A DNA stretch of 64,000 bases from the NCBI GenBank assembly GCA_963816185.1, contig CAWFJJ010000025.1, positions 448,001 to 512,000 of the forward strand, read 5' to 3'. The DNA comes from Thermoanaerobaculia bacterium (GTDB taxonomy: Bacteria; Acidobacteriota; Thermoanaerobaculia; UBA5066). The notes beneath the pieces were generated by a model. It had not been told where the DNA came from and did not search any database. It was given only the letters and a program-made list of their open reading frames with translations. Shown piece after piece: positions 18,782-41,738 of this stretch (positions are counted from its first letter, which is position 1; each line of letters begins with the position of its first letter). The position numbers and the translations under genes were made by a program.

Positions 18782-18825
18782 AGACGCTTCCTTCCTCTTC
18801 TCGCGCTTTTCGACGGGTTCTTATC

Positions 18826-19818: not shown

Positions 19819-21670
19819 AGCACGATCTGGTCGCCGGTGCGCGGCGGCCAGCGGCGCATGATCCCCTCGCGCTGCTTCGTCGACGCCACGAGCTGGCTGA
19901 AGGAGTTCACAGAGGCGTAGAGCGAAAGGAAGCGCTCGAGCACGGACGCGAAGAGGTAGACGCCGGAGCCGACGAAGTTCTGCTCGTCGAAGTCGATCGA
20001 GACCTCGAGTCCTCTCACGAATCCCGGGTGAGTGTCGCGGAGCGGCCGGACGACCCGGCGCGCGGAGAGCTTCGAGATGCCGTCGATCTGCTGCCGCGTG
20101 ACCGACGAATCGGAGATGTCGTAAAGCCGCAAGATCTCCCGCAGCGCCTCGGGGCCCTTCTCTCCTTCGCGCTCGACGAGCGACAGGACGTTCAGGGCGA
20201 GGTGCGAGATGAGCCTCCAGTGCGCCCCGCGCCGGAGCGGCGGCCGCAGGCTCACGGTCGGCTTCACGAGGCTTCGGATGGCGGTGAAAACCCCGGGGCC
20301 CTCGAGCTGGAAATCCCCGTCGGGATTGCCGAACGGGAGGCGGGCCGGAAGGTCGCGGTTCGAGGTGGTCACGTGCACGGTGAGGGTGTCGGTGTCGGGC
20401 ACGGTCGGATCGAAGTTCATGTCGACGAGCGTGAGGTAGACCTCGGTCCCTTCGTCGTCCTTGCGCTCCGACGGGCGCCGGCTCGCGTGCCAGAGGGCTT
20501 GCTGGCCCGCGCGCTCCGAGTCGTGACGGAACGCGAAGAACGGCTGATACGTCCGCACGGTCTCGGCGTCGGCGCCCGTCGACGTCACGCGTCGACCGAC
20601 CAGACCTCGTGCGCGCCCGGCCGCCTGAGGTTCGGGATGACCCGGTACTCGTGGCTCAGATGGGTCACCCGGATGGGCTCGGCCATCTGCGAGAAGAGGT
20701 TGACGACGGGAGTGGCGTGCAGCCGGAAAGTCTGCGCCGAGATGCTCCGTTCTGCGGCGAAGGGGCGTCCCAGGAGGACCCGCACGTCCAGCGTGTCCGT
20801 GAAGGCGCCTCCTTTGAGCCGCTCGAGCCCGTCGAGGTCCACGAAGAGGTACTTCTCCGGAAAGGAGAAGTACTCCTGGAGGACGCGGTATCCCCGGAAG
20901 AGGCGGTCCGGTGTCGGCAGGAGCGTCTCGTCGTCGCCGAAGCCGACCGGCCGGAGAGCCTCCGGCCCCAGCCGGACCACCTCGGAGTCGGGCGACGAGG
21001 CCTGGGGCCGGAGCTCGATGGTGAGCACGTCGTTGAAGAGCAGCTCGTAGAGCGCGTGGACGACCTTGCCTTCGCCCTGCAGGTAGAAGCGAAGCTTGGA
21101 GAGCGGGAGCTCGGCGCCCTCGACCGATTTCTCCTTGAGCTCGGACAGGGCCGCGCCTCCCAGGACGTGCAGGTCGAGGTGGAGCATCGTGCGCGCATCG
21201 CGGCCTTCGATCGTGACCGCGGGCGCCTGCTCGAAGCGGGCCGCTCGCACGTCGACGGGCCAGATCGTGACCGGATACGCGGTCCGGAAGCGGCATGGGA
21301 TTCCGTCGACGGGGGCGGACGCGAGCGTCGAGCCTCTCGGAATCGTCTGCCCCGTCTGCAGGCTCACCTGCTCGGGATTGAGAACGAACTGGACCACGGA
21401 CATCGAGGGCACGGGCGCGAGAAAAGTGGGGTACAGGATCCCGAGGAGGGATTCCGTGATCTCCGGGAACTCGTCGTCGATCTTGAGGCGCACGCGGGCC
21501 GCGAGGAACGCGAAGGCCTCGAGAAGCCGTTCGACGTGCGGGTCCTCGCACTTGTCCGGCTCGAGCTGCAGGCGCGACGCGACCTTCGGGTATTTGTCGG
21601 CGAACTCGGCCCCCATCTGGCGGAGGAAGCTCAGCTCGCGCTCGTAGTACTCCAGGAGATCGCTGCGCAT
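19815..21670 (-). CDS. tssF: T6SS baseplate TssF; one frameshift near 20588
   Basis: YYERELSFLR..DPHVERLLEAFAFL, GYRVLQEYFSFPEKYLF, TPVVNLF; second frame WRLISHLALN, YASVNSFSQL. Confidence 0.95.
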
Positions 21671-22152
21671 CAGTCGCCCTTGACCGCGAAGTTACCGCTC
21701 CCGAGCTGAAGAGTCGTGTCGAACGAGATCGGCTCGGGAACGGGATCGATGCGCAACCGCGCCTCGATCCTGAAGCGGAAGGCGCGCTCGAGCACGGACG
21801 CGTTCGCGACGCTGACGACGATGTCCTCGAGGCGGGGCTCGAACCGCTTCAGCGCGACTTCGAGCGCGCGGGTGAGGTCGTGCTGGTCCGCGGCGCTTTT
21901 CACGCTCATGTTGGTGAAGTCCGGGAGGCCGTACGCGAGAAGGGAGCCGGCCAGGAGCGGCAGCGCGTCGGGCACCTCGAGGACGCGGCGCGTGTTGAGG
22001 AGCCACTCGATGTCCCGCTTGAGGGCCTGTTTGACCTGGCGAAGGGCCTTCGAGCGCGAGGAGGGAGGCTCGGATTTCACCTCGGGCTCGAAGTCGACGA
22101 GCCGGTCGAGAACCGACAGGTTGATCCGGATCTCGTCGTCGATCCTCGGCAT
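21670..22152 (-). CDS. tssE: T6SS baseplate TssE (gp25-like)
   Basis: SVLDRL, RDIEWLLNTR, YGLPDF, FEPRL. Confidence 0.95.
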   Translation of the reverse strand: MPRIDDEIRINLSVLDRLVDFEPEVKSEPPSSRSKALRQVKQALKRDIEWLLNTRRVLEVPDALPLLAGSLLAYGLPDFTNMSVKSAADQHDLTRALEVALKRFEPRLEDIVVSVANASVLERAFRFRIEARLRIDPVPEPISFDTTLQLGSGNFAVKGD

Positions 22153-22215
22153 GGCGCGTCGCGGGGGCGGGTGCCGAGGCCGGCGACGATGCGCCGGCCT
22201 CTGGCCGTCCGTCCC

Positions 22216-23706
22216 TTACTTCCTCGTCGGAGCCGGCAGCTCGGCCACCAGCCGCAGGGAGACCGACAGCTCGTCGAGCTGGAAGTGCGGTCTGAGGAAG
22301 GCGATCGCCTTGTAGACGCCGGGCTTGCCCGGAACCTCCGCGACTTCGATGCGCGCCTCGCGGAGCGGGAACTGCGCCTTGACGGCCGGCGAGGCCATGT
22401 CGTCGGGCGTGACGTAGTTCGAGATCCACCTGTTGAGGAAGAACTCGACGTCGCCGCGCGAGGCGAAGCTGCCGATCTTGTCCCGCATGATCGACTTGAG
22501 GTAGTGGGCGAAGCGGGACACGGCGAAGATGTAGGGGAGCTGCGTCGAGAGACGCGCGTTCGCGTTCGCGAAATCGGTGTCGTATTTCTTCGCCTTCTGG
22601 GCAGATTGCCCGCCGAAGAACGCCGCGTAGTCGGTGTTCTTGCAATGGACGAGCGAGATGAAGCCGAGGTCCGAGAACTCCTTCTCGCGGCGGTCGGTGA
22701 TCGCGATCTCGGTCGGGCACTTCAGCGCCACGTCACCTTCGTCGGTCTGGAAGGTGTGCGCCGGGAGCCCCTGCACGAGCCCGCCCCCCTCCACGCCGCG
22801 GATCGCGACGGTCCAATTATAGAGGGCGAAGGCTTCGGTCAGGCGCGTCCCGAACGAGTAGGCGGCGTTCCCCCAGAGATATTTCTTGTGGTCCTTGCCG
22901 TCCACATCCTCCTCGAAATTGAAAGACTCGACGGGGACGGTGTTCGCACCGTACGGGAGACGCATGAGCGTGTGGGGAAGGGTGAGCCCCACGTACCGCG
23001 AGTCCTCCGAGTCGCGGAACGAGCGCCACTTCGCGTACTCGGTCCGATCGAAGATCTTGGCGAGGTCGCGCACCTCGGTCAGCTCGGTGTAGCTCTGCCA
23101 GCCGAACATCTCGGGCGAAGCCGCCGAGATGAAGGGCGCGTTCGCCGCGGCGGCAACGCCCGAGATCTTCTCGAGCAGCGACATGTCCTGCGGGTGGTTG
23201 CCGAATTCGTAGTCCCCGATCAGTGCGCCGAACGGGGCGCCGCCGAACGTTCCGTACTCCTCTTCGTAGACCTTCTTGAAGAGCGCGGACTGGTCGAACT
23301 CCGCGGCCCGCTCGAGGTCCTTCAGGAGATCCTTCTTGGACACGTTCAGCACGCGGATCTTGAGCATCGTCGAGGTCTCGCTCTCGAAAACGAGATGCTT
23401 CAGCCCGCGCCAGCTTCCCTCCAGCTTCTGGAAGTCCGGGTGGTGCATCACCTCGTTGAGCTGCGCCGACAGGAGCTTGTCGATCGCCGCGATGCGCGCG
23501 TTGATCGTGTGCTCGAGGTCCTTGGAAAGGACGACCTGCCCCTGAAGGGCCTGCTGGACGAACTCGGCCAGCATGTCCTTGGCGTTGTCGACCTGGTCCT
23601 CGCGAAGCGCCAGACGCCCGCTCTCGAGGATCTTGTTGAGAAGTCCCCCCTCCTGCTCCTGAACGACGGATTCAGATTCGGCCCTCTTGTCGGGGTTCTT
23701 GCTCAT
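22216..23706 (-). CDS. tssC: T6SS contractile sheath large subunit TssC
   Basis: FQKLEGSWRGL, FKKVYEEEYGTFGG, LWGNAAY, KCPTEIAITDRRE, SRFAHYLK, LRPHFQLDEL. Confidence 0.98.
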   Translation of the reverse strand: MSKNPDKRAESESVVQEQEGGLLNKILESGRLALREDQVDNAKDMLAEFVQQALQGQVVLSKDLEHTINARIAAIDKLLSAQLNEVMHHPDFQKLEGSWRGLKHLVFESETSTMLKIRVLNVSKKDLLKDLERAAEFDQSALFKKVYEEEYGTFGGAPFGALIGDYEFGNHPQDMSLLEKISGVAAAANAPFISAASPEMFGWQSYTELTEVRDLAKIFDRTEYAKWRSFRDSEDSRYVGLTLPHTLMRLPYGANTVPVESFNFEEDVDGKDHKKYLWGNAAYSFGTRLTEAFALYNWTVAIRGVEGGGLVQGLPAHTFQTDEGDVALKCPTEIAITDRREKEFSDLGFISLVHCKNTDYAAFFGGQSAQKAKKYDTDFANANARLSTQLPYIFAVSRFAHYLKSIMRDKIGSFASRGDVEFFLNRWISNYVTPDDMASPAVKAQFPLREARIEVAEVPGKPGVYKAIAFLRPHFQLDELSVSLRLVAELPAPTRK

Positions 23707-24239
23707 TTGGGTTCTTCCTTCTTCCCTTCCTCGTCCGTCACGACGCCGAGCTGCTTTCCGAGCTGCTTCTGGGCGTTCGGGTCCTTGAGGAGGTCCGTCA
23801 GCATGGCTTCCAGTTTGTCGTTGCCGTCGGTCTTCGACAGGATGTCGCGAAGCTTCTGGCGCGCTTCGACGAGCTTTCTTAGGGGTTCGACCTGCTGAAC
23901 CACCTGATCGGGCTCGAAGTCCATTAGGTTGTTGAACTTCATCTCGACGTTCATCTTGCTGCCGTCGTCGGACAGCTTGTTGTCGACGCGAAGGGCCAGG
24001 CGCGGCGCTTGCGCCGCGAGCACCTGATCGAAGTTGTCGCGGTCGATCTCGATCAGCTTCCGGTCCTTCAGCCGCGGAAGCGGCTCGACGGGCTGGCCGG
24101 AGAAGTCGCCGAGGACTCCGACGACGAACGGCAGCTCCTTCATCTCGATGGCCCCGCCGATCTCCACGTCATACGTGATCTGGACGCGGGGAGGGCGAAT
24201 CCTCTTCAGCTTCTGCTGGATACTTTCCTTCTTCGGCAT
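23703..24239 (-). CDS. tssB: T6SS contractile sheath small subunit TssB
   Basis: RPPRVQITYDVEIGGA..ELPFVVGVLGDFSG..IDRDNFD; ATG at 24239 with GGAGGG RBS. Confidence 0.97.
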   Translation of the reverse strand: MPKKESIQQKLKRIRPPRVQITYDVEIGGAIEMKELPFVVGVLGDFSGQPVEPLPRLKDRKLIEIDRDNFDQVLAAQAPRLALRVDNKLSDDGSKMNVEMKFNNLMDFEPDQVVQQVEPLRKLVEARQKLRDILSKTDGNDKLEAMLTDLLKDPNAQKQLGKQLGVVTDEEGKKEEPK

Positions 24240-24250
24240 GGTTCCCTCCC

Positions 24251-25369
24251 TCAGGCTCCCGAGCTGCTGCGACTGCCGGACTCGCCTTTGAGACCGAGCG
24301 TTTCGCGCAGACCGGCGAGAACGTTGTTGTCCTTGATCACGTCGACGAGCCAGGCGTCGAGCGGCATCTGCCCCCACGCGATGGCGCGCTGGACGAGGTA
24401 CGAGACCGGGCTGTGCGGCTCGGTCCTCCGGAAGTAGTCGGCGACCTGCGCGAGCTGGGCGAGCGCCTGATCCCGTGCCCTAATGGCTCCACCTGGCCCG
24501 CCTGCCGCGCCTCCCCCTGTCTCGCCCTCGGCCCCTTCAGCGGCGTCGGAGGGGTCCGGCTCCTCGATCCTCTTCTCCTTGACGACCTTCTCGAGCAGGC
24601 TCCGAATCCCCTCGAGAGTCTTCGTGAGGCCGCCGAGCCCCGGAGTCTGGCGTGAGAAGCGGGCGTCCATCTGCTTGTCGAGGGCCTTCAGAGCCGCCCA
24701 GCTGTCGGCGACGTCCGCGTAGACCTCCTCGTAGAAGGCGCGGCGCGTCTCGCTCTTGGCTTTCTTGACGTCCTCGCCCGTGACCTTGTGGTCCATCAGG
24801 GCGCGTGCGCGCTTCTCTTCGAGCTGCTGAAGAGCCTCGCCGGAGAGCTTCGAGGTGTCGGCCGGGAAGTCGTACTGCTGGGCCTCTTCCCACTGGAAGA
24901 AGCTGTAGTTCGCACCGGAGCGCTTCGTCAGCGGGATCCTCCTGACCGCCTCCGCGGCCTGGCGGTCCAGCCACGCGAGCGCGTTGGCCCGAGCTTCGAG
25001 ATCGTTTCCCTCGTCGATCTCCGGATACAGCGTGTCCCAGAACGTCTCGAGAAGCCCGCTCGCGAGCTTCAGCGAGTCCCTCAGGCCCGGGAAACCGTTC
25101 ATGCTCACGGCGGCTTCGGAGAGCCACGCGACGATCTGGAGGTCCTTCGTCTTGCCGCTCAGGCTCTCGCCGGCGAGCTCGGCCACCTTCTCCCAGTCGG
25201 CGACCTTCAGCTCGTGAACCCAGTCCCCCTGCGGAACGTCGTCGTCGGCACGGCGCGCCTCGCGGATCTCGTCGTGGAGGCCCGAGTACTGGAGGTTCTC
25301 CCCGCTTGGGTTCTCTCCAGCAATCGGCGCGAGGAGGGCGTCCAGGTTGAAAACGGGAGCTGACGGCAT
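24251..25369 (-). CDS. tssA: T6SS TssA (ImpA_N domain)
   Basis: LLAPIAGENPSGENL, ADW, TKDLQIVAWL, FWDTLYP, YFRRTEPHSPVSYLVQRAIAWG. Confidence 0.95.
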   Translation of the reverse strand: MPSAPVFNLDALLAPIAGENPSGENLQYSGLHDEIREARRADDDVPQGDWVHELKVADWEKVAELAGESLSGKTKDLQIVAWLSEAAVSMNGFPGLRDSLKLASGLLETFWDTLYPEIDEGNDLEARANALAWLDRQAAEAVRRIPLTKRSGANYSFFQWEEAQQYDFPADTSKLSGEALQQLEEKRARALMDHKVTGEDVKKAKSETRRAFYEEVYADVADSWAALKALDKQMDARFSRQTPGLGGLTKTLEGIRSLLEKVVKEKRIEEPDPSDAAEGAEGETGGGAAGGPGGAIRARDQALAQLAQVADYFRRTEPHSPVSYLVQRAIAWGQMPLDAWLVDVIKDNNVLAGLRETLGLKGESGSRSSSGA

Positions 25370-25436
25370 CGCGACGATTTCCTCCAGCCGAGAGAGACGC
25401 TTATGCCATTCGGCGGGCAACAGTTAGAATGCTGAA

Positions 25437-25465
25437 AGGATAGCGACGGCGCAGACCCCGGTCAA
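25437..25465 (-). promoter_or_regulatory. Sigma70-type promoter for the tssA-tssB-tssC-tssE-tssF-tssG-clpV operon
   Basis: Minus strand TTGACC-17 bp-TATCCT, about 70 bp upstream of tssA. Confidence 0.6.
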
Positions 25466-25491
25466 GGGCGGTGCAGAAGCGAGGAGAGGTC

Positions 25492-26304
25492 ATGCCGACA
25501 CCACGTGAACTTTATCAGGCCGGTCAACTCCAGGCGGCGATCCAGGCCCTCACGGCCGAGGTCAAGGCGAACCCGGCCGACGGACCCTCCCGCATCTTCC
25601 TGTTCGAGCTGCTCTCGTTCGCGGGCGACTGGGATCGTGCCCGGAAGCAGATCGAGGTTATCGGGCAGGCGGGCCCGAACGAGGCCCTCGCGGTTCAGGT
25701 GTACCAGGCGAACATCGAGGCCGAGCGCACGCGAGAGCGCCTCTTTTCGGAGGGCCTCCATCCCCACTTTCTGAACGAGCCACCCCCGTACGTGGACCGG
25801 CACCTGGACGCCATCAACCGGATCCGGGAGGGGAACTTCGCCGAGGCCAGGGTCCTCCTCGACCGGGCCGAAGAAGAGCGTCCCGCGCTGGCGGGGACGC
25901 TGAACGGACGGCCGTTCGCCGACTTCCGCGATTGCGACGACGTCATCGGGCCCGTTCTGGAGCTGATCGTGAAGGACAAATACACGTGGCTTCCGTTCGA
26001 GCAGATCCGGCGCGTCGAAGTCAGCCCCCCATCGAAGCTCCGGGACCTCGTCTGGGCCCGCGCCAAGGTCGAGGCCCTGGACGGGACGGTCGGCGACGTG
26101 TACCTGCCGGCCCTTTACGAGGGAACGTGCCGGAACGCGGACGACCAGCTTCGGCTCGGCAGGATGACGGCCTGGATCCCGCTGGCCGACGACCTCTCTC
26201 GCGGCGCGGGGCTCAAGACGTTCCAGGCGGACGAAGACGACGTGGCGCTGTTCGAGGCCCGGCAGCTCGAGTTCCGCCCGCTGCCTCCCGCCGCAGTCGC
26301 CTGA
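25492..26304 (+). CDS. tagJ: TagJ/ImpE (SciE) T6SS accessory protein
   Basis: VKANPAD..RIFLFELLSFAGDWDRA, FADFRDCDD..GPVLE..YTWLPF, LRDLVW, LRLGRMTAW, GAGLK. Confidence 0.93.
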   Translation: MPTPRELYQAGQLQAAIQALTAEVKANPADGPSRIFLFELLSFAGDWDRARKQIEVIGQAGPNEALAVQVYQANIEAERTRERLFSEGLHPHFLNEPPPYVDRHLDAINRIREGNFAEARVLLDRAEEERPALAGTLNGRPFADFRDCDDVIGPVLELIVKDKYTWLPFEQIRRVEVSPPSKLRDLVWARAKVEALDGTVGDVYLPALYEGTCRNADDQLRLGRMTAWIPLADDLSRGAGLKTFQADEDDVALFEARQLEFRPLPPAAVA

Positions 26305-26307
26305 GCG

Positions 26308-26344
26308 ATAAAAAGAAGGCCCTCGCATCGGTCGAGGGCCTCTT
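26308..26344. terminator. Intrinsic terminator hairpin between convergent tagJ and hcp (U-tract on minus strand)
   Basis: AAGAAGGCCCTCG-catcggt-CGAGGGCCTCTT preceded by an A-tract. Confidence 0.75.
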
Positions 26345-26374
26345 GGAACGGAATCCGGACGGGATTCGGGGGGT

Positions 26375-26863
26375 TCAGAGCTTCTTGTTCGCCTTCACGT
26401 CCCAACCCATCTTCACCTGGCCCCCCCCTGTGCCTGTTGCTGTCTGCGGCTTGTACTCGTGTTCGATTTTCGTGAAACTTAGCGTGGCTTGGTCAATTGG
26501 AAGGTCGGCGCCCGTCGATCCCGCCGCATTGTAGCTTGTGACGAATACATCGGAGAGGGTGATCTTCAGGAACTCCAGAGGGTCATCCCCGCCCGCCTTG
26601 CGGTTCGTCAGGATCGCCTTCGGAATGTGCTTCCCATTACAGCAGAACTCGAAAAGCTTCGGCGACGCACTGCCGTGGGTGAAGCTGAAGCTCAGGTCAT
26701 GAACGTCCGCCTTCCCGGTGCCGCCGCCACCACCCATCCCCATCGAGCTGGCATTCGATGCGCCAAAATGGAAGGATAGGACTTCGATTTCTTTCTTGTG
26801 TTTCGAGTCCTCGCTTTCACCCTCAACTCCATCGATTTTCAAAAAAGCGTCGAATTTTGCCAT
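26375..26863 (-). CDS. hcp: Hcp (TssD) tube protein 1
   Basis: FLKIDGVEGESEDSKHKKEIEVLSF, ASPKLF..CNGKHIPKA..RKAGG, GWDVKANK. Confidence 0.97.
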   Translation of the reverse strand: MAKFDAFLKIDGVEGESEDSKHKKEIEVLSFHFGASNASSMGMGGGGGTGKADVHDLSFSFTHGSASPKLFEFCCNGKHIPKAILTNRKAGGDDPLEFLKITLSDVFVTSYNAAGSTGADLPIDQATLSFTKIEHEYKPQTATGTGGGQVKMGWDVKANKKL

Positions 26864-27025
26864 TGGCTGCTCCTTTCACTCGTTCAAGTGGATGTGACTG
26901 TTTTCACGCCCTTCTCGGCGTCAAACATAGGTCTCTCCGGACGGAATTCAACCTCACTACGACAAACGCGTGACGGCGATCATCATGAACGACCGACCGA
27001 TCCTGCGTCCGGGGTTCGAGGCTCG

Positions 27026-27517
27026 TCATGAGGGTTTGTTCGCCATCAGGTCGTCCTGGAACATCGTAGAACCGCCCGACGTTCCGAGGCTCGTCTGCGG
27101 AGAGGCCTGTAGCTGGATCTTTCCGTAAGCGAGATCGAAGTCGCAGGGCGGCATCACGTTGCCCTTACTGGTTTCGAGGTCGCCGGTCTGAACCTTCACG
27201 ACGAGCACGTCGGAAAGCGTGATCGTGAAGTATTCGAGGGGCACGTTTCCCGCCTTGCGGCACGTCAGGACCGCCTTTGGGATCTTCTCGTTCGTCGCGA
27301 GCTTCTGGTAAAGCAACGGAGCCGACATGTCGACATTCGCGCGTATCGACAAGTGCGACCATCGGCGCGCGCCGGTAGCCTGGTTCGTGAACGCGTCGCG
27401 AGGGCTCATCAAACCCAGCTGAAAGCCTTCGATCTGGATCTCGCCCTTGTGTCCGGAGGTATCGGCGCTTTCGCCGCCGACTCCGTCGATCTTCAGAAAC
27501 ATGTCGACGAGCGCCAT
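27026..27517 (-). CDS. hcp: Hcp (TssD) tube protein 2, divergent paralogue
   Basis: DMFLKIDGVGGESAD..HKGEIQI, SAPLLYQ..NEKIPKAVLTCRKAG..LEYFTITLSDV. Confidence 0.92.
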   Translation of the reverse strand: MALVDMFLKIDGVGGESADTSGHKGEIQIEGFQLGLMSPRDAFTNQATGARRWSHLSIRANVDMSAPLLYQKLATNEKIPKAVLTCRKAGNVPLEYFTITLSDVLVVKVQTGDLETSKGNVMPPCDFDLAYGKIQLQASPQTSLGTSGGSTMFQDDLMANKPS

Positions 27518-27564
27518 GGCTGTTTCCTTTCACCCTCTTTGTCGAGAGTGCGAATCATATGCTC

Positions 27565-29034
27565 TCAGTCAAGCGGTGCGGAAAATGCGTCGGGCATCCT
27601 CGCGCGGCGGAGCACGAAGGACTTTTTCAGCGGGTCTCGAGGAGTGAAGCGAGCGGGAGGTCCCACCCGGGGGGCGCTGTTCGAGGAAGGGGACTCGCCA
27701 GGGGCGCGGCAGCGGGAGATGCGTCGGCCGCGGGAGGGGCCGGGGCTGGAACTGCGGAGGAGGTGGCTTCGGGAGGCTCGGCAACAGCGGGTGTCTTGCG
27801 GCACCGCCGGTTCCTCCGAAGGTGTCGGCGCCTCCGAAGGCGCCTCTCCCGCGGGCGCAGCGGGAAGGGGGGACGGCCGCACTTCGGCGGCGGGGGCTGC
27901 CGCGCCGAGCAGGAGAATCTCCTCGACGGGCGGAGGTTCGGGTCCGGGGGCGGTTTCAGGCGGCGGAGCTTTTTCGGCGGGTGATGCGGGCTCGGGAGGC
28001 GGCGCCGCCTCTGCCGGCGCCGCTTTGGTCGCGTCTGGTGCTGATGGCGCGGTGTCGGTCACGGACGCTTCAGCCGCCGGCGGATTGGTCGCCGGCGCGT
28101 CGACCGCCGTCGCGGGCCCGCTCGCTGCCTCCGTCCCTCGCCGCCGGCCGGATTTCGGGATCTCTTCGATGAAATCTGTCGCAATCGCTGCCGGATGGAG
28201 GAGGAGGATGTCTTCCGCCTTCGCGTCTCGGAAGAAGATCACGCCGCAGGGCGCCTCGCCTCCGGTCCTGTAGAGAACGCCGGTCGGGCCCGCTCCCGCC
28301 GGAACGGCCCTGGTGAACCTGACGGTCCAGAGCTTCATCTGGTGGAGCGGGGCCGTCTCGTCGGCGAGCGGAATGCGGAACGCCGCAGCTCCCGCGGTGG
28401 GGCTTCGCGCAGCCGCGTCGAGGCCCGAGAGGAGCTCGGTCCATTTCGTCGACGCGTCTTCTCCGAAGAGGGCCGTGGCGAGAGGTCCGACGCGCGAGCG
28501 CGCGAGCGCTTCGGCGAGCCGTGCGCGGATCTGCTCCTGCGTCCGGAGAGGGACCTCGATCCTGGCTCCGCGGAGCTCCTGGTAGACCGCCGCCAGCGAG
28601 CCCCCCGCGTCGTACTTCCGCCGGATCTCCCGCGCCCGGTCTTCGAAAACCGGGAGGTAGTCGAGCGCCGCCAGCACGGAGGCGGCCGGCTTACCCGCGG
28701 GCAGGATCGTGAAGAGAGCGAACGGAAACCTCCGCAGGCCCCCCTGGTCCGTGCTCCCCCATAGCGCGCCGACGGCCATCTTGCGGCTCTGGGGGAGGCG
28801 AAGGAGAAAGGCGTGGAGCGGGATCTCGCTCGAGCGGCAGTCGTCGCGGGACGACCAGAGGCGGCTGAATCCGTTGGACAGCCAGTCGCGGAACTCGCGC
28901 GAGGCGTCGTCCGTGAGCCCCGCAGAGATGAAGTCTTTGTAGACGGGAAGCTTCCCGAACGCGAAGAGAGGCCACGACTCGGTCGGAGGCGGATCGTCCG
29001 CCGATCGCTTGCGAAATGGGGACAGGAAACCCAT
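27565..29034 (-). CDS. tagF: TagF-like (DUF2094) T6SS regulator with Pro/Ala-rich C-terminal tail
   Basis: FGKLPVYKDFI..FRDWL..GALWGSTDQGGLRRFPF; follows tssM. The C-terminus may be frameshifted near 27790. Confidence 0.75.
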   Translation of the reverse strand: MGFLSPFRKRSADDPPPTESWPLFAFGKLPVYKDFISAGLTDDASREFRDWLSNGFSRLWSSRDDCRSSEIPLHAFLLRLPQSRKMAVGALWGSTDQGGLRRFPFALFTILPAGKPAASVLAALDYLPVFEDRAREIRRKYDAGGSLAAVYQELRGARIEVPLRTQEQIRARLAEALARSRVGPLATALFGEDASTKWTELLSGLDAAARSPTAGAAAFRIPLADETAPLHQMKLWTVRFTRAVPAGAGPTGVLYRTGGEAPCGVIFFRDAKAEDILLLHPAAIATDFIEEIPKSGRRRGTEAASGPATAVDAPATNPPAAEASVTDTAPSAPDATKAAPAEAAPPPEPASPAEKAPPPETAPGPEPPPVEEILLLGAAAPAAEVRPSPLPAAPAGEAPSEAPTPSEEPAVPQDTRCCRASRSHLLRSSSPGPSRGRRISRCRAPGESPSSNSAPRVGPPARFTPRDPLKKSFVLRRARMPDAFSAPLD

Positions 29035-29054
29035 CGGGGCGCTCTCGAAGGCCT

Positions 29055-32000
29055 TCAGTTCGGGAGGATGGGCGGCATCGGCTCGTCGAGCCGGACCTCG
29101 AACGCGCCCTCGAGAAGCTCCCGCGGGTTCTTCCCGTCCGGGATCTGAACGCGAATGGTCCAGACCTTCGGATCCGAGAGCTCGGTTCGCCGCTCGCTCG
29201 CGAGCCGGATGAAATAGAAGAGCTTCAGGGGCCCGCCCGTCACTTCGTAGGTGCTCGTCCATCCCCCTTCCCCGGACTGCTCGTTCCGGCCGCTGATCGT
29301 GAGGAGGGCGTCGGCCGAGCTGAGGCGCCAGACGAACGGAGGCGGAATCCGCTGGGACTTGATGTCCGTCGAGGGGCGCAGGATCACGCCCCGGTCGAAA
29401 AGCGTGATCTGCGAGACGCGGTCCTTCAGCGGGCGTCGTCCCGGGCCGGGCTCGCGGTCGAGGGCGAGGACGCTGACCTCGCGCCCGCCCGGGCCCCCCG
29501 GCTTGCCGCCAAGCGAGGCGGCCGCCGCGGAGCTGGCTCCGCTGATGAAGCGCTGCCAGAGGCGGGCGACGGCGAGGGAGCCCCGGTTCTGCAGGATGAA
29601 GTCGAAGGACGGCTCCGTGCCGCCGAGGAGCGGGTCGACCGCAAATTCGTCGGAGAGGACGCCGACTTCCGTCAGGACCCCGAGGACGTCGGCCTGCCCG
29701 ATCGTGGGGAGGTTCCGGCGGAGCGAGAGCGCGCCCGAGACGCGCTCGGCGGCGTACTCGGCTCGCTCCTGCTTCAGGCGGCTCTCCGGGATGAACGGAA
29801 ACTGTCCGGAGCAGCAGGACGCGAGCCGCTGGTAGAGGGCGTCCCACTTGGGGTTGAACTGCGGCTCGATCGCGGTCTTGATCAGGCTGGCGCCGCGGTC
29901 CTCGAGATTCTTCAGCGATCGCCCGTAGGGCCCGCCCTTGATCCTCAGGTCGCCCGTGAACGCGTGCCACCCTCTCAGCGTGGCCCCTTCGCCTCCCGTC
30001 GCGAGCTGCTTCCACGACTTCAGCTCGTCCTTGTCACCGAGCGCGCCGACGGTCTTCTTGAAAGTCTCGGCGGCGGCGAGGAGGTAGTCCGGGATCACGG
30101 CCGGCTTGGCCGAAACGCGGGCGCGCGAAACGGCTCCTGTAGTACTCGATGACGGGGTTGAGGTTCGCGTTCGTCTGGACGAACCCCTGCAGGTCGGCGA
30201 GCGTGAGCTGCCCGGCCTGGTCGGCGCGCGCCGCCTCCGCCGCCTCCGGCCGGAGTCCAGGTCCCGACGGCGATCTGGAACGTACGCCAGGCGCGGGCCG
30301 TCAGCGCGGATCCCGGGATCGTGAACCCGCCGCCTCCCGACCTCACGGGCGAGCCCGTGGCGTCGAGGAAGCGCTTCAGGTAGTCGATCTCGCCCTGCGA
30401 GAGCGCCTTGACGTCGTTCTTCGCGTCGTCGCGGGAGAGCGCGTTCGTCTGCCGCTCGGCGAGCGAGACGACGCCGTTGCCGTAAGGAATCATCATCTGC
30501 GTGAACGGCTTCTGGAAGCAGATGGCGGGGTTGCAGCCGGGGCCGATGGAGGCGGTCAGGAACTCCTGGACCGGGGGAAGCACGCGCGCGAGGAGCGCGA
30601 GCTCGGCGGTGCGCCGCGCGAAGGGGCCGACGTCGCTCGCGCGGAAGCGCGCGTCCGGAATCGTCTTCTCGAAATCCGCGGCCTTCGCGACGGACGCGTT
30701 CTTCAGGTCCTCCTGCCGTTTCTGCCACTCTTCGAGCTTCTGCTTCTTGCCGTCCAGCGAGGAGATCGTGTTCACCTGGGTCAGGATTTTTCCGTCGTCG
30801 GTCGCCCGGAAGGCGTCGAGGTCCGAGTACGCGCCGACGTCGGAGAGGAGAGAGCTGACGAGAACGGTCGGGTTCGCGAGCTTCGTCTTTCCGGGAGTGG
30901 ACGTCTCGTCGAGGAGAAACGCGAAGCCGCTCTTCTGCGCGCCCAGGTTCGCGTAGTCGACCTGGAGGCGGCCGATCAGCTCCTGGAGGCGCGACGTGTT
31001 GACGCGCGTCTGAGCCGCCGGGTGGAAGGTCGGGGCGATCGTCGCGCCGGGAAGAGAAGGCGGGGGAAGAGCCGGGAGGGGCGGCGGCGAGGCGGTGCCG
31101 GCGGCCGTCGCGGGAGCGGTCGAGGGGGCGGCGGGAGCGGCCGGTGCCGCGGCTGCGGCGCAGTGGGCGGCCCGAGCGTGAGGAGCTGCGCGTAGGACTC
31201 GGTCAGGTAGCGCTGCCATTGCTCGACGTTCGCGCCCGGGAAGCCCTTCTCGCCGGGACGGGGCGTCTCGAGGTGCTTCGTCAGCGCGTCGAAGTTCGCC
31301 TTGAACTGCTTCGCCGTGTCGGCGGTGCGCTTCAGGTAGCTCGCCTCCTGGGGGTCGACGATTCCCGTGAGCGCCGTATAGAGCCGGACCCATTCTTCCA
31401 GCCCCTTCATGAGCTTCCAGTCCCAGCGCGCGAGGTTCGCGACGGTCCAGTACCGCTCGAACGTGTCGATGGGACGGCTCGGATCGGGGACGCCGACCTT
31501 CAGGTCTCCCGCGTTCCGCCCGCGGGCGAGCTGCGTGACGAAAGCATCCGGCCGGGGGTCCGCCGGCGTGATCTGAGCGGCCCACTCGTCGATCTCGGCC
31601 GCGTACTCGCTCCCCGCGATTCCCTTCGTCTTCTGGGCGAAGTTCACGAGGCCGAGGAGGCGGAGGTCCTCCGCGCGGAAGGCGTCCGTGCCGTCCGCCT
31701 TCTTGAGGGACTGATCGAAGCCGCGCCACGCCAGGAAGCTCTGGAGAGCGCCGAAAAACGCCGAGTAGTCGGAGAAGGTCTCCCAGTTCAGCGCGGCCAT
31801 CCGCGCCTCGGACTCCTTCAGGAGCGGCCGGACGACTCCGTCGAAGAAGAGCTTCTGCTGGACGGTCGCGAGGAGGCTGTGGATCTCGTTCGACTTCGCG
31901 CCCCTCAGGAACAGGCCGAGAAGGAAGGGGTGCTGGCCGAGGCTGACGCGGTCTTCGTAGAGCAGCCGGGTCAGCTCGTACTTCTGGGCGATCGTGCAGG

Positions 32001-35989: not shown

Positions 35990-35994
35990 CGCGT

Positions 35995-37941
35995 CTATTT
36001 CCTCTTGTTGAGCTTGTCGAATTCCGCCTGCGAGAAGCGCGCCGCGGCCTGGAGAACCTGATCCTGGACGAGATCGGGGTTGAGGTCCTTCACGAGGTCG
36101 CGATACTGGTTCCACCATTCCGCCGTCTCCCCGCGGAGCTTCCACCCCGCTCCCGGTTTCCCCGCTTCGATGACTGCCGGGCTGATTCTCTTCCAGAGCT
36201 TGGTGAACCACAACTTCGGCGCCTCGTGATGCCCCGCCGAGATGGCGATCTGCCAGCGCCGGAGCTCGGCGAGGTAGTCCCGCACGTCGTCCGGGTTGAC
36301 CTCTTTCCCCTCGGCGGCCGCGGCGAGGAACCCGCTCAGGCGGTCGCGGAAGTTCGGCAGGCGGAAGCTCGCGGTCTCGGCGCCCGGCATCGTCATCGCC
36401 TCGACGAGGCCGAGGACGAACGTCTCGACGTCCTGGGCGAAGCGGAGGACGTCGCGGACGACGGCGAGACGGGGCTCGAGCGTCGAGTCGTTGTCGTCCT
36501 CCTTCGTCAGCAAGGTCCGCCATGGCAGAGCCGCGGCGACGGCCGTCTTGGACGCGGCCGCGGCCGGACGGGAGGCTGCCTCGGCGAGACGCCGCTCCAG
36601 CTCGGCGACTCGGCGACGCAGCCGGAGCTCCTCGAGGTTCGGCACGTCGCCCGGCGCGACGACGGGGAACTGCAGTCTCAGCTGCTCCAGGACGCGCGGC
36701 CTCCTGTCGGGTTGGAGGGCATAAAGCTCCCGGACGACGAGAGACCTGAGAGCTTCGCGCCGGTCGGCAGGCGTCGAGAAGCGGTAGGCGGCGGACTCGT
36801 TGAGGAGCGCGTCGCCGAGCTCGCGCGCCTTCCGATCGAGAGCGATCTCTTCCTCGGTGAGAGGGCCGCCGGCGAGCGCCGCCCCGGGGCCGGCGGGGGC
36901 GAGGGCCTGCTCGCGCCGCGGCGCTTCCTCCGAAGGCCGCGCGACGGGAGCGGGGATCTTCTGGTCGACAAAGTCCTCCGCGGCTCTCATGGTCCTCGTC
37001 TTCTGCGAAGGCGGGCGGCGGATCTGGCCCGAGGGCGACGTGGCGGCGGCGACGAGCCGCGACGGCGGCGGAGGCGAGGGAGGAGGCGCCGGCTTCGGCT
37101 CCTCCCCAGCGCCGAGATCCCCGAGCCGGCGCGCGAGCCACGAGCCCACGGCGCTCTCGGTGTCCCGCCGGAGCAGCGTCAACAGCTCGTGGCGGAGCGT
37201 CGTCTCGAGCTCCACCGCGGACGAGTCGACGTGACTGCGCTGGCATTCCTCGATCAGGAAGCCGACCTTGGGCGAGAGGATCAGCTCGTCGGAGCCCGTC
37301 TTGAGGCCGATCGGCTGGAGGAAAAGGTCATTCAGCCACGTGTACGGGCCCGAGAAGAGACGGCCTTCCCACAGCTCCGTCAGCGCCTGCTCGCGCGACC
37401 AGCTCGCATCTCTCAGGATCCGCTGAATGCTCGCGCTGCGCGAGCGGAGGATCGAGTCGCAGAGGTGACGCGTGTCGGTGAACAGCTCGCCGCGCTGGAC
37501 GGCCGCTTCGCGGGCGCCGCGCATGATGCTCTGAACGGCCGGGTCCGGCCACGCCTCCCCCCTGAGGACGCGCGGGAACGGCATCTCCGGAAGGGGCGCA
37601 TCGACGAGCCGGACCCTGACCGGCGTCGACGAGACGAGGAAGACGTCGCCCGAGCGGATCTCGATCTCGCCCGTGACGTGGCCGGCCTGGACCGAGGTGC
37701 CGTTCGTCGACCCGGCGTCTTTCAGGAAGAGCCGGCCGCGCTCGTAGCGAAGCTCCGCGTGGGTCGACGAGACGCCGTGGCCGTACGAGAGGACGAACTC
37801 GTTCCTCGTGTTCGTCTTCTTGTCCACGGACACCCGGCCGATGTGGATCGTCGCTGGCGCGCTCCCGGCCGGGGTGACGTGGCGAAGCCCTTCCATCGGC
37901 CCGAGCCAGACCTCGACGGCGACGAAGACCGGCTCTCTCAC
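35995..37941 (-). CDS. FHA domain + Clp N-terminal-like domain + helical C-terminal protein (TagH/Fha-like)
   Basis: FHA: IGR..VSSTHAEL..DAGSTNGT. ClpN-like: AREAAVQRGELFTDTRHLCDSIL..LSPKVGFLIEE. GTGA overlap with the upstream kinase-like gene. Confidence 0.8.
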   Translation of the reverse strand: MREPVFVAVEVWLGPMEGLRHVTPAGSAPATIHIGRVSVDKKTNTRNEFVLSYGHGVSSTHAELRYERGRLFLKDAGSTNGTSVQAGHVTGEIEIRSGDVFLVSSTPVRVRLVDAPLPEMPFPRVLRGEAWPDPAVQSIMRGAREAAVQRGELFTDTRHLCDSILRSRSASIQRILRDASWSREQALTELWEGRLFSGPYTWLNDLFLQPIGLKTGSDELILSPKVGFLIEECQRSHVDSSAVELETTLRHELLTLLRRDTESAVGSWLARRLGDLGAGEEPKPAPPPSPPPPSRLVAAATSPSGQIRRPPSQKTRTMRAAEDFVDQKIPAPVARPSEEAPRREQALAPAGPGAALAGGPLTEEEIALDRKARELGDALLNESAAYRFSTPADRREALRSLVVRELYALQPDRRPRVLEQLRLQFPVVAPGDVPNLEELRLRRRVAELERRLAEAASRPAAAASKTAVAAALPWRTLLTKEDDNDSTLEPRLAVVRDVLRFAQDVETFVLGLVEAMTMPGAETASFRLPNFRDRLSGFLAAAAEGKEVNPDDVRDYLAELRRWQIAISAGHHEAPKLWFTKLWKRISPAVIEAGKPGAGWKLRGETAEWWNQYRDLVKDLNPDLVQDQVLQAAARFSQAEFDKLNKRK

Positions 37942-40085
37942 GCGCGCCCCTCGGAAGAACGCTCGCTCTCCTGAATCTCGGCAAGGATCTGCTGGATCTC
38001 GAGGTGGACCGACTGTCGCGCGAAGAGAAGAGACTGCAGCTCGGCCAGAAGCGAGGCGACTTCGGGGACGACCCGCTCGAGCTTCTCCTCCCGGAAAAGC
38101 GGGTCGAAGTCGGCGGCAGAGGCCGCGATCGAGAACCCCGCGATGCGCGTGACGAGACGGAGCGCGAGGAGGACCGCCCGCTCCCAGAGCGATTCCGGAA
38201 TGGCGTTCGGCCGGTCGCCTCGGCGGTCGTCGCGGCTCCAGAGGATCTGCGCCTTCGAGAAGGCTCCCGCCGCGTCCGGAACGCGTTTGAGGAGCGCCGC
38301 GAGCGTGACGTTCCGCCGCGCCTCGCCGGGCGCGAGCGACGCAACCTCCCGGGAGAGCCGGTCGGTCGCCTTGAGGACCGAGGCAACGTCCTGTCCGTCG
38401 TTTCTGAGCAGCAGGCGGAGCAGGGTGACGCCGAGAGCGTGCAAGTCGCTCGGCGTGCCGAAATCCGGAAAGACGCGATACCGGGCCCCGGGAATCTTCG
38501 TGCCGAGCGCCAGGCGGAGGCGGCGCATGCCGCTCTCCCCGAGCGCGACGAGATCGCTCGCGAACGCCGCCTCGTCCGAGCGGACTTCCCCGGGCGTCGC
38601 GCGCGCGGCGAGGCCGGTGAAACCGAAGTCGAGCGTCGGGTCGGGGATCGACAGGAAGATCGTGTCGCGCGCCTGCGGCGAGGGATAGAGACCGTATGCG
38701 TCGGAGACCCGGCCGCGGAGGCGGAAGCGTCGCGATCCCGTCCCTTCCTCCTCGAGGTCGGTGAAGACGAGCTCGCACGGCCGGTATCCGGCCAGGCGGA
38801 ACTCCTGGATCTCGGGGGGCGCATAGGGAACGGACAGGCCGTGTCCGGGCAGGACGACCGACGGCGATCCCGGGGCGGGGAGCGTCACCGCGGAAGCGGC
38901 CAGGCCGTGAATCCGCGCCTGAAACGTCCAGAAGAGCGGGAGGCCGTCGCCGGCTCCCGAAAGCTCGAAGAGGAGGTGGCGGGGGTGGAGATCGAGGTGC
39001 GGGCGTCCGGCGGCCCGGTAATAGTCGATGAGGCCTTCGAGGATCTGGCGGAACGCGGTCAGCTTCAGGAAGAAGATCTCGACGGCATCGAGGCCGGAGC
39101 TCTCCGTTTCGAAGAGGAGTCGACGAGTGGGTGCGGGCGCTCCGATGAGCCACGCCCAGCGCGCGGGGAGCGTCCCGCCCGCACCTGAGTTCCGGACCTC
39201 GAACTCCTCCCAGGGCCGGCCGCCGAGCGCATCGGCGAGCGCTTCCAGGTCGAGAGGAGCCGCCACGGTCACGAGGAAGGGCGACCCGTAAAGAGTCAGA
39301 GGCGTGAACAGATCCCCGGCATTCGCGCCGCCCGAGGCGTCCGGAGCGGGAAGGGAGCGCGCTGCCTTCGCGGTCTCCTCGCCGACGAGAGCTGCCGCCT
39401 CCTCCTCCGTGAAGACTTCGCGAAGAGAGCGGAGAAAATCGTCGAGAAGTTCCGAGGCGGAGCGGACGGTCGCGCCCGGCGTGCGGATCTGCGACGTCGT
39501 GTAAACGGTCGGCGCTCCAGGTCCCTCTGCGCAGCTTTCACACCAGACGAGGCGCTCCCGCGACGAGGCGTAGGGCGGGAGGCCGGTGCGCGCGAGCCAC
39601 GCCTCGTCTCGGCACAGCGAGAGCGGACTCTTGCAGACGGGGCAGGGCGGAACGAAGAACGAGCGCCCGACGCGCGAATAGAAGAGAGGAGGAAGGCGAT
39701 CCGCCGCCTCTCCCGCCGTGGAGTCGAGGCGGACGAACCGCGGGAAGTGCGGCGACTGCGCGTTGAGGTCGACGAGACGCGATCTCTCCCTCTCCCAGCG
39801 ATCCTCGACATCGCGGTTCGACATTTCGAGCGCGCCCGGCGTCACGCCGTCCGGCCAAGCGTCCGGCAGCAATTTCAGCGCACAAAGCTCGAGCAGCGTG
39901 TCGTCGTCCCCCTTCACCGCTGCGAGGTAGACGCGCGCGAGATCGTCGGCCTCCGAGAGGCGCACGAAAGGCGAATGCTCGCGGCCCTCGCCCGAGACAT
40001 CCAGGACGAGGTGCAGGCCGAAGGGAGCGCTCGCCCCCGCCGGCGGCAGGAGTCGCGCGGTCTCGATCCCTCCGGGCTCTCGCAC
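37938..40085 (-). CDS. Degenerate Hanks-type Ser/Thr kinase-like protein with zinc-ribbon insertion
   Basis: RVYLA, CALKLL (VAIK-like), CPVC..C..CESC insert, HLDLHPRHLL (catalytic-loop-like), YAPPE (APE-like), SDLHALGV (subdomain IX-like). Confidence 0.7.
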   Translation of the reverse strand: MREPGGIETARLLPPAGASAPFGLHLVLDVSGEGREHSPFVRLSEADDLARVYLAAVKGDDDTLLELCALKLLPDAWPDGVTPGALEMSNRDVEDRWERERSRLVDLNAQSPHFPRFVRLDSTAGEAADRLPPLFYSRVGRSFFVPPCPVCKSPLSLCRDEAWLARTGLPPYASSRERLVWCESCAEGPGAPTVYTTSQIRTPGATVRSASELLDDFLRSLREVFTEEEAAALVGEETAKAARSLPAPDASGGANAGDLFTPLTLYGSPFLVTVAAPLDLEALADALGGRPWEEFEVRNSGAGGTLPARWAWLIGAPAPTRRLLFETESSGLDAVEIFFLKLTAFRQILEGLIDYYRAAGRPHLDLHPRHLLFELSGAGDGLPLFWTFQARIHGLAASAVTLPAPGSPSVVLPGHGLSVPYAPPEIQEFRLAGYRPCELVFTDLEEEGTGSRRFRLRGRVSDAYGLYPSPQARDTIFLSIPDPTLDFGFTGLAARATPGEVRSDEAAFASDLVALGESGMRRLRLALGTKIPGARYRVFPDFGTPSDLHALGVTLLRLLLRNDGQDVASVLKATDRLSREVASLAPGEARRNVTLAALLKRVPDAAGAFSKAQILWSRDDRRGDRPNAIPESLWERAVLLALRLVTRIAGFSIAASAADFDPLFREEKLERVVPEVASLLAELQSLLFARQSVHLEIQQILAEIQESERSSEGRA

Positions 40086-40149: not shown

Positions 40150-41118
40150 TCAGGCGTGGAACACGAGCCGCTGCTTGCCGAGTGTGAGCACGTCGCCGTC
40201 CACGAGCTGGACCTTGTCCACCTTCCGACCGTTCACGACGACGCCGTTCTCCGACTCGAGATCGACCACGTAGACGCCGGACGGCCCGACGATCACCTGC
40301 GCGTGCTTGCGCGAGACGTCGGGTGTCGGCAGGTGGATGTCGCTCAGGGCAAGGCGCCCCAGAACGGAGACGCCCGGCTTCAAGGGAAACTCCTTCGCGA
40401 TCCGGTCCCCGTCCAGGAGCGCGAGGCGGGCGCGCGTCAGGACGACGGTGGCCTCCGGAGGCTCGGGCGCCGCCGCCACGGGCGGCCTTCCGAACGGAGG
40501 CGGCGGCTTGATGACGTTCTCGACGGGCTCGGGGGCCGGCGGGGCCGGCGGGGCCGGAGGGGCCGGAGGGGCGGATCGCGCCTGGGGCTGCGGGGCCGGG
40601 GGGGCAGATCGCACGGGGGGCGGTGGGGCCGGAGGAGCAGGTCCCTCGGAGGCTGAGTCGGCGGTCTCGAGATCCTCCTCGGACCGGAAAGCGTCCAGGA
40701 ACGTCGCCTTCATCTGCAAGACCGCCTCGAGATCCTGGCGCTCTTCGGCGAGGTGCTTCTCACAGGCCGTAAGCCGTTCTTTGTAGGCCCCGTCCGGGAA
40801 CTCGCCCAGCTCGCGGCGGAAATCGACCTCCTCCTTATCGAATGACGCGGCCTCGACGGCCTGCTCGACCTCGCGACGCAGGGCCTGAAGCCGCCGGTAT
40901 TCGCGGCGCGCCTGCTCCTTGAGAGGCCGCGACTCCTGGTCGAGCGCCACGCGCCTCGTCTCGTAGTCCTTTCGAACCCGCTCGTACACGGCCGGCGATA
41001 CCTTCTCCGCGCGGAGCTCCATGCTCTTCAGGCGCTCCGCGAGGAGCAGCTCCTCTTTCTTGATACGGACGAGGTCGGCGATGGGGGACAGATCGATCCG
41101 GCTCAGCTCTTCACGCAT
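40150..41118 (-). CDS. Coiled-coil + Pro-rich linker + C-terminal FHA domain protein
   Basis: LGR..SDIHL..VSRKHAQV..DLESENGVVVNG..LVDGDVLTLG; N-terminal charged heptads. Confidence 0.88.
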   Translation of the reverse strand: MREELSRIDLSPIADLVRIKKEELLLAERLKSMELRAEKVSPAVYERVRKDYETRRVALDQESRPLKEQARREYRRLQALRREVEQAVEAASFDKEEVDFRRELGEFPDGAYKERLTACEKHLAEERQDLEAVLQMKATFLDAFRSEEDLETADSASEGPAPPAPPPPVRSAPPAPQPQARSAPPAPPAPPAPPAPEPVENVIKPPPPFGRPPVAAAPEPPEATVVLTRARLALLDGDRIAKEFPLKPGVSVLGRLALSDIHLPTPDVSRKHAQVIVGPSGVYVVDLESENGVVVNGRKVDKVQLVDGDVLTLGKQRLVFHA

Positions 41119-41734: not shown

Positions 41735-41738
41735 ACGA

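Follow-up and report, generated by a model that had tools for sequence, protein, structure and literature searches.

The stretch of DNA analysed here, 64,000 nucleotides of a Thermoanaerobaculia bacterium (positions 448,001 to 512,000 of contig CAWFJJ010000025.1, GenBank assembly GCA_963816185.1; hereafter the window), carries a type VI secretion system (T6SS) gene cluster, the only one in the genome, which has a single TssK. One gene of this cluster (P0001) encodes a protein of 715 residues with the features of a protein kinase; both gene and product are referred to here as KL, for kinase-like. KL is present as a single copy in the genome, starts at a GTG codon, the place at which its homologues begin as well, and is followed directly by a gene for a TagH-like protein. 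A preliminary description, made from the nucleotide sequence, presented KL as a pseudokinase scaffold or an atypical enzyme. The kinase fold and the degenerate motifs have stood, and the pseudokinase scaffold is our leading reading as well; the T6SS operon, the coupling to TagH and the TagH fusions described below were no part of it. The family to which KL belongs is probably an undescribed regulator of T6SS.

Gene organization of the locus

KL is the first or second gene of the T6SS operon. The order on the minus strand is a gene for an FHA protein, KL, the TagH-like gene, TssJ-like, TssK, TssL and TssM (Table 1), followed by TagF, Hcp, TssA, TssC, TssE, TssF, TssG, ClpV and VgrG, while TagJ/ImpE, between Hcp and TssA, lies on the plus strand. 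The TGA stop codon of KL (37940-37938) overlaps the likely GTG start codon of the TagH-like gene (37941-37939) as GTGA, the classic arrangement of translational coupling, and the sequence is consistent with KL being coupled to TagH in this way. The TagH-like protein matches FHA (E 1.6e-10), TIGR03354 (weakly) and T6SS_FHA_C (E 0.014), and the GR, SxxH and NG residues of its FHA domain are invariant. Its residues ~130-260, from the FHA domain to the Pro-rich linker, are helical and match no Pfam family; A133, R136, D142, R144, H145, L146, W188 and P196 are invariant there (alignment A3).

Table 1. Coordinates in the window of KL, its parts and the neighbouring T6SS genes
Feature	Coordinates	Strand	Remarks
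KL gene (P0001)	37938..40085	-	715 aa, GTG start
Acidic loop LSEADDLA replacing the Gly-rich loop, residues 43-50	39936..39959	-	L43 invariant, S44 at least 90% conserved; hhalign 23%
K71, β3 (VAIK) Lys equivalent, in CALK	39873..39875	-	invariant 44/44; aligned to VALK of genome kinases
E100, αC Glu equivalent	39786..39788	-	invariant 44/44; in predicted helix 90-110; aligned to E of RFxRE
Insert 1, ~residues 111-330, between αC and αE	39096..39755	-	holds zinc ribbon, helices and low-confidence loop 298-330
Zinc ribbon, residues 146-196, C148-x2-C151, C158, C182-x2-C185	39498..39650	-	conservation and weak Lar_restr_allev match
Catalytic loop RPHLDLHPRHL, residues 361-371	38973..39005	-	H363, D365, H367, H370
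QARIHGLA, residues 389-396, β8 and DFG equivalent	38898..38921	-	R391, H393, G394 invariant 44/44
APE motif PYAPPE, residues 420-425	38811..38828	-	P420, Y421, A422, E425 invariant
Insert 2, ~residues 428-545, six-stranded β-barrel and one helix	38451..38804	-	folds alone
αF, residues 543-559, with D547 (subdomain IX Asp)	38409..38459	-	hhalign to kinase αF 83% and 72%
Long conserved C-terminal helix, residues 667-708	37962..38087	-	L687, R690, Q691, E696 invariant
TagH-like gene: FHA, helical domain, Pro-rich linker, T6SS_FHA_C-like end	35995..37941	-	next downstream of KL
Upstream FHA gene, 322 aa: coiled-coil, Pro-rich linker, C-terminal FHA	40150..41118	-	FHA E 8.4e-16
TssJ-like	35516-36010	-	library match
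TssK	34148-35416	-	library match
TssL/DotU	33453-34151	-	library match
TssM	30976-33534	-	library match
Remaining T6SS cluster: TagF, Hcp, TagJ/ImpE (+), TssA, TssC, TssE, TssF, TssG, ClpV, VgrG	14651..30015		

This arrangement is conserved. In 38 of 42 related loci, all from other Acidobacteriota genomes, KL is followed by TagH, and the four other contigs end at most 230 nt from KL, so that TagH is found in all 38 loci with room for it. TssJ-K-L-M come next in all 30 loci which are long enough. Of the 42 loci, 13 have the upstream FHA gene directly 5′ of KL and on its strand; these all belong to the 15 loci at 69% identity or more. The gene was found in none of the loci of the clade at ~40% identity, two of which have unrelated housekeeping genes upstream, and a role as a constant partner of KL is ruled out. 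The spacer between it and KL (40102-40135) varies among relatives: in one contig from a soil metatranscriptome, 8 nt are replaced by 40 other letters. Contigs from that metatranscriptome run are mostly 90-95% alike to the locus, cover 27 of 30 bins and include one bridging the FHA gene and KL. They come from relatives and may result from DNA carry-over; contigs by themselves do not demonstrate a transcript, and they were not used as evidence of KL expression.

A protein kinase fold

Conventional sequence searches assign KL to no kinase family. There are no Pfam or NCBIfam matches at E<=0.01, and the sole Pfam match at E<=5 is a weak zinc-ribbon match to Lar_restr_allev (E 0.019, residues 146-191). 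PF00069 gives no match even at E<=5, its gathering score is not reached, and phmmer returns zero matches among PDB sequences. The TagH-linked KL family as a whole has no Pfam or NCBIfam model. The motifs quoted in the preliminary description are nevertheless all present in the 715-residue reading frame, with the order and spacing to be expected and far beyond chance: EADD (starting at residue 45), RVYLA (51), CALK (68), CPVC (148), CESC (182), HLDLHPRH (363), IHG (392), YAPPE (421) and SDLHALG (546).

Structural comparison gives kinases only. An AlphaFold2 model was built on an alignment of 44 KL homologues sharing 38-86% identity with the query (A1, which is also the source of the conservation figures given for the clade) and has a mean pLDDT of 81.4 and a pTM of 0.82. 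When this model was compared by VIA-align with 48,161 PDB chains, 252 chains had Z>=8, and all 50 entries among the matches listed are kinase or pseudokinase domains. The IRAK3 pseudokinase is the best match (Z 16.6, with 262 of 285 residues aligned at an rmsd of 4.0), and others include PknS of Xanthomonas (Z 16.1) and PknB (Z 15.3). The neighbours of KL in a language-model search are Pkinase clusters (scores 0.94-0.95). The A1 profile has only non-significant matches among PDB sequences (best E 0.16), of which 17 of 18 are kinases, matched at the catalytic loop. Because these three approaches all lead to kinases, we consider the protein-kinase fold of the modelled protein as established. Foldseek found nothing in the PDB at E<=0.001 with the whole 715-residue model (top rows with TM<=0.13), and matches of the Sen1/Setx/Upf1 type are accounted for by the β-barrel insert described below.

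The protein also appears to be soluble. In agreement with the preliminary description, no convincing transmembrane helix was found: the only Kyte-Doolittle peak (1.76, residues 637-655) includes two Arg and coincides with a predicted buried helix (631-645).

The catalytic site

To locate the catalytic residues, six canonical Hanks kinase domains from the same genome (A2) were aligned by hhalign to an alignment of 121 family sequences. The whole alignment caught αF only (probability 83%) and a segment-wise alignment was needed for the remainder. Family residues 325-432 align with A2 with a probability of 95.8% (E 6.8e-9). In this register H363-L364-D365 of KL fall on H-R-D, which makes D365 the HRD Asp, while the catalytic-loop Lys and the Mg-binding Asn are occupied by H367 and H370. 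There is an 11-residue insertion between β7 and β8, beyond which G394-L395-A396 occupy the D-F-G positions. A MAFFT alignment with relatives having a canonical (I)DL(A/G) gives an identical register. In the preliminary description IHG stood in place of DFG; the loss of the DFG Asp is upheld, and the position of the Asp itself is that of Gly394, with His393 one residue before it. In the N-lobe, where the alignment is weak (probability 23%), K71 falls at the VAIK Lys, E100 at the αC Glu and S44 at the initial Gly of GxGxxG. This agrees with the proposed replacement of the Gly-rich loop by the acidic EADD, and the stronger alignment bears out that both the Lys and the Asn of HRDLKPxN have become His. 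Among the residues important for catalytic competence, KL retains the β3 Lys, the αC Glu and the HRD Asp, and has lost the catalytic-loop Lys, the Asn, the DFG Asp and the entire GxGxxG loop.

Inserts and the C-terminal helix

Two inserts interrupt the kinase core. The first, between αC and αE, includes the five-Cys ribbon predicted in the preliminary description, and its invariant residues include P147, L155, P170, R178 and D285 (A1). Each of the five Cys is at least 90% conserved in the clade. In the wider family all five are present in 71 of 121 representatives, and only one or two are kept in 46. A language-model search with this insert (residues 112-330) revealed no look-alike, the best score being 0.83, to hypothetical proteins of 43 residues.

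The second insert, β-rich as described previously, is real and folds independently (pLDDT 91.2 when modelled alone with a 35-sequence alignment); its length is ~115 residues (about 428-542) instead of ~130. The nearest structures are FNR-type FAD-binding and Upf1/Sen1 1B barrels, with Z<=7.3 and Foldseek E>=0.085. For the modelled domain, this shows a common barrel architecture and neither homology nor cofactor binding. A FAD-binding or PilZ-like role is unsupported by such middling matches, and neither the RxYS motif of FNR nor the RxxxR...DxSxxG motif of PilZ was seen by eye. The protein ends in a long conserved helix, and in relatives fused to an FHA domain the latter starts ~30 residues past the equivalent of this helix.

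The wider KL family

Ninety-five clusters are homologous to KL, every one annotated as "hypothetical" and most of them with the label Thermoanaerobaculia or Acidobacteriota. Among 1.84 billion representatives, a profile search identified 1163 relatives at E<=0.001, of which 320 reach E<=1e-30 (50%-identity representatives), and KL matches the family profile over its full length. The family is present in Acidobacteriota and in Planctomycetota, to which two of its distant groups belong, as judged from a few source names. Three of 40 distant relatives scanned with Pfam (P0164, P0180 and P0193) show sub-threshold Pkinase matches at the catalytic loop, with 19.7-26.1 bits compared to the PF00069 cut-off of 31.7.

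The catalytic residues vary widely over the family. In 121 near-full-length representatives, the β3 Lys is kept in 83, the HRD Asp in 41, the Asn in 47 and the DFG Asp in 55. All four (K, D, N, D) are found together in 10 and none of them in nine. Five have the catalytic-loop Lys in addition to all four, and it is in five relatives that HLDLKPEN plus (I)DL(A/G) form a complete canonical set. The state found in KL (K, E / D, H, H / H, G) is limited to its own clade (4 of the 121, plus one intermediate, DKH-HG). D547, in contrast to these variable positions, is present in every representative.

Nine others of these 40 distant relatives carry a C-terminal FHA domain and six of these nine also T6SS_FHA_C, and are therefore KL-TagH fusions. 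All nine lack the catalytic Asp, yet the GR/SxxH/NG residues of their FHA domains are intact.

A putative pseudokinase component of the T6SS

TagH and the upstream protein both retain, in their FHA domains, the phosphothreonine-binding residues GR, SxxH and NG, as do all nine fusions. Since these pockets are intact, a phosphothreonine ligand is to be expected from their sequence. The T6SS cluster includes no PF00069 kinase, and none of the three PF13672 matches of the genome (PP2C phosphatases) lies in it; the nearest is ~5 kb outside the window and ~20 kb from the end of the cluster. There are 91 PF00069 matches elsewhere in the genome which could supply phosphothreonine in trans. Such a complement of Hanks kinases is unusually large for a genome of 5.1 Mb, and a run of ~seven is located on contig C24 (600-620 kb).

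Pseudokinases are defined as having a kinase fold without at least one of the β3 Lys, the HRD Asp and the DFG Asp (in passages of PMC4718504 and PMC13519141), and an intact Gly-rich loop together with VAIK is given as the best predictor of kinase activity so far (PMC4718504, in part). With the DFG Asp, the loop Asn and Lys and the Gly-rich loop all missing, KL is a pseudokinase by the usual sequence definition. We favour, as reasonably probable, a reading in which KL is a soluble kinase-fold accessory component of the T6SS which functions with TagH as a regulatory scaffold or switch and not as a conventional Mg-ATP kinase. The rigid kinase core with its zinc ribbon and β-barrel would bind TagH in equal amounts and control the TagH-dependent assembly of the secretion apparatus. 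In favour of this reading are the kinase fold and the motif mapping, the place of KL in the T6SS cluster, its overlap with TagH, the fusions, the lack of a PP2C gene in the cluster, the kinases available in trans and the presence of TssK in all three KL-positive genomes of the sample described below. Phosphothreonine for the FHA pockets would come from ordinary Hanks kinases in trans, or would be absent. We infer that KL itself is not, or only weakly, catalytic and that its conserved, His-rich cleft most likely holds a ligand, a cation-free nucleotide or a metal, which would set the conformation of the protein. As the set K, D, N and D is complete in no more than 10 of the 121 representatives, nine have none of the four and all fusions lack the catalytic Asp, the family alignment indicates that the function shared by its members must be non-catalytic.

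Several observations weigh against this reading. The catalytic base and the Lys-Glu pair are retained. K71, E100, D365, H370 and H393 are invariant in all 44 sequences of the clade and H367 is at least 90% conserved. The catalytic loop is moreover the most conserved segment of KL, with a mean column conservation of 0.92 against 0.61 for the whole protein. Such a pattern is unlike that of a dead, drifting active site and, given the invariant residues and the conservation of the loop, indicates that the cleft does something. The ten relatives with the four canonical residues make phosphorylation by the family probable in some lineages. Direct binding of KL to TagH is presumed in this reading; a predicted complex of KL (A1) with TagH residues 13-265 (A3) scored 0.00 and 0.01 compared to a mark of 0.32, which counts neither for nor against it. 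Finally, in a sample of 301 genomes of the phylum, KL was found in three and TssK in 36. All three KL carriers are TssK-positive and, in the genus of the present genome, the one other KL carrier has TssK while the two non-carriers lack it; however, KL is missing from the remaining 33 sampled genomes with TssK. For this reason KL is an accessory gene, belonging to some T6SS clusters only, and not a core part.

KL may instead be an atypical but active Ser/Thr kinase in the role of PpkA/TagE, an alternative which we regard as possible though unlikely. ATP would be bound without Mg2+, or its phosphates would be held by His367, His370 and His393, possibly with a transition metal, and KL would slowly phosphorylate itself, TagH or TssL and so provide the phosphothreonine read by the two neighbouring FHA domains. 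The invariant catalytic residues, the invariant or nearly invariant substituting His, the conservation of the loop, the intact pockets of both flanking FHA proteins, the lack of a canonical kinase within the cluster and the five relatives with a complete canonical set are all in its favour. There are also precedents: CASK has no DFG Asp and yet is active as a kinase independently of cations (PMC4718504, in part), and passages of a review of bacterial pseudokinases (PMC12599244) describe cation-independent ATP binding via basic residues for ULK4 and its modelling for the DLHK family. CASK, however, retains its Gly-rich loop (PMC4718504, in part), which is absent from KL, where acidic residues lie at the place of the ATP phosphates. 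In addition, the activation segment of KL has no conserved Ser/Thr (A1), there is no partner phosphatase in the cluster and the catalytic Asp is lost in most relatives, including all nine fusions.

A kinase fold can also support non-kinase chemistry, as in SelO and SidJ. Asp365, His367, His370 and His393 together with the acidic loop might form a transition-metal site which, with the Cys5 ribbon, would act as a metal or redox sensor gating the firing of the T6SS, or might catalyse a non-kinase reaction of this type. We consider this quite improbable. Only this clade has three His and one Asp fixed within the cleft, its ribbon is conserved, and no result contradicts the metal/redox idea, which derives from the Cys and His content. 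Against this, the ribbon Cys are reduced to one or two in 46 of 121 representatives, so that redox sensing cannot be the function of the family, and SelO, SidJ and other kinase folds with alternative chemistry are not prominent among the 50 VIA-align matches listed. That the resemblance to kinases is spurious, or that KL is merely adjacent to the T6SS, is effectively refuted: the empty Pfam, NCBIfam, phmmer and whole-model Foldseek searches would allow it and VIA-align, the profile alignment, synteny, the fusions and the start/stop overlap all oppose it.

The reading of KL as a regulatory scaffold or switch can be taken further for the Thermoanaerobaculia/Holophagales clade, whose invariant Asp365, His370 and His393, near-invariant His367 and acidic former Gly-rich loop would bind a ligand. 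Here the Mg-ATP site may have been rebuilt as a site for a transition metal or a cation-free nucleotide, KL then being a ligand-gated switch which licenses TagH-dependent assembly. We put this forward as a rather doubtful extension. If it were true, the T6SS would be licensed without a dedicated kinase/phosphatase pair, a new input logic for firing, and the clade would illustrate a new way of repurposing a kinase active site.

Comparison with known systems

Post-translational control of the T6SS is known mainly from the PpkA-PppA-Fha pathway of a few Proteobacteria. PpkA/TagE is the Hanks-type kinase of this threonine phosphorylation pathway, with Fha1/TagH and PppA/TagG, and PpkA has a vWA domain. 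Like KL it has a kinase fold, is encoded in a T6SS cluster beside TagH and is presumed to control assembly post-translationally (PMC13584744, in part). Unlike PpkA/TagE, KL falls outside PF00069 and has neither the Asn nor the DFG Asp nor the Gly-rich loop. It is soluble, with no transmembrane helix and no further Pfam domain, whereas TagE has a periplasmic domain (PMC13584744, in part). The cluster of KL has no PP2C partner (PppA/TagG), and KL is distinguished by its zinc ribbon and β-barrel insert and, in some lineages, by its fusion to TagH.

Parallels in terms of role are found among other bacterial pseudokinases. MviN (MurJ) of Mycobacterium tuberculosis, with FhaA, is an example of a pseudokinase which works with an FHA protein: its pseudokinase domain, a trans substrate of PknB, recruits the FHA domain of FhaA (passages of PMC12599244 and PMC4718504). 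The MviN domain is, however, the cytoplasmic part of a membrane flippase and all its motifs are degraded, whereas KL is soluble, keeps the Lys, the Glu and the HRD Asp and belongs to a secretion system; the likeness is one of role. A link to FHA domains also exists in type VIIb secretion systems, through EssC. In the same systems EssB/YukC provides a non-catalytic kinase fold as a structural and regulatory secretion component (PMC12599244, in part). In contrast to KL, EssB is membrane-anchored, has degraded versions of the three motifs and of the Gly-rich loop and belongs to a different secretion system and phylum. CASK, through its CaM-kinase domain, shares with KL the retention of the β3 Lys and the HRD Asp and the loss of the DFG Asp, and its Asn is also replaced.

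The families of O'Boyle et al. 2025 (ActPs1-3, GLW, CP1, DYD and DLHK) resemble KL as cytosolic, Hanks-derived proteins with divergent ATP and metal motifs, and DLHK keeps the HRD Asp, as does KL (passages of PMC12599244). DLHK differs in lacking the β3 Lys, in keeping the Asn and in its linkage to helicase or DNA2 domains; for CP1 the link is to COG3899, and DYD is membrane-bound (same source, in part). KL has K71, a His in place of the Asn and no helicase/DNA2 or COG3899 domain, and does not share these features of DLHK and CP1.

No T6SS-linked pseudokinase was found in the available parts of a 2026 review of T6SS accessory factors (PMC13584744), nor a KL-like family in those of the 2025 review of bacterial pseudokinases (PMC12599244), from which "T6SS" is absent, in which FHA occurs once, for MviN, and whose matches to "type VI" in the passages shown are "Type VII". 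Full-text searches of the literature, subscription-only papers apart, yielded no description of such a protein. Here we find a large family in the position of a kinase beside TagH, mostly degraded in its catalytic residues and repeatedly fused to TagH. This suggests that a pseudokinase-FHA module controlling the assembly of the T6SS is widespread, with parallels in MviN-FhaA for cell-wall synthesis and in EssB for type VII secretion. Within one structural context, the active sites of the family also range from canonical to completely degraded, a natural series useful for the study of pseudokinase evolution.

Other features of the window

Divergent genes lie directly upstream of the T6SS cluster (41246-45942). 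They encode a MerR regulator (41246-41734), a GGDEF-PilZ protein (41481-42839, an overlapping ORF call) and an EAL protein (44395-45942). MerR and GGDEF genes are found at the same place in five close loci (L001, L002, L003, L008 and L009), and this region may provide a c-di-GMP link to T6SS control.

Within the cluster, TssF (19815-21670, minus strand) is split over two frames: its Pfam positions 1-353 are in the ORF at 20585-21670 and positions 354-608 in that at 19815-21551, from ~20591. The junction (20585-20591, minus strand) reads ...GTCGACGCGTGACGTCGAC... and the split fits a one-base indel, which may be a fault of the assembly or else a genuine frameshift; in the latter case the baseplate would be disabled. 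TagF_N matches only residues 353-451 of an 816-residue ORF (27565-30015, minus strand). TssM is matched by the IcmF-related N domain only, and there is no Pfam match across 29055-30728. An RND efflux pump (AcrB-type, 1051 aa) and an outer-membrane factor (OEP), both ordinary, are encoded at 53164-57752 on the minus strand.

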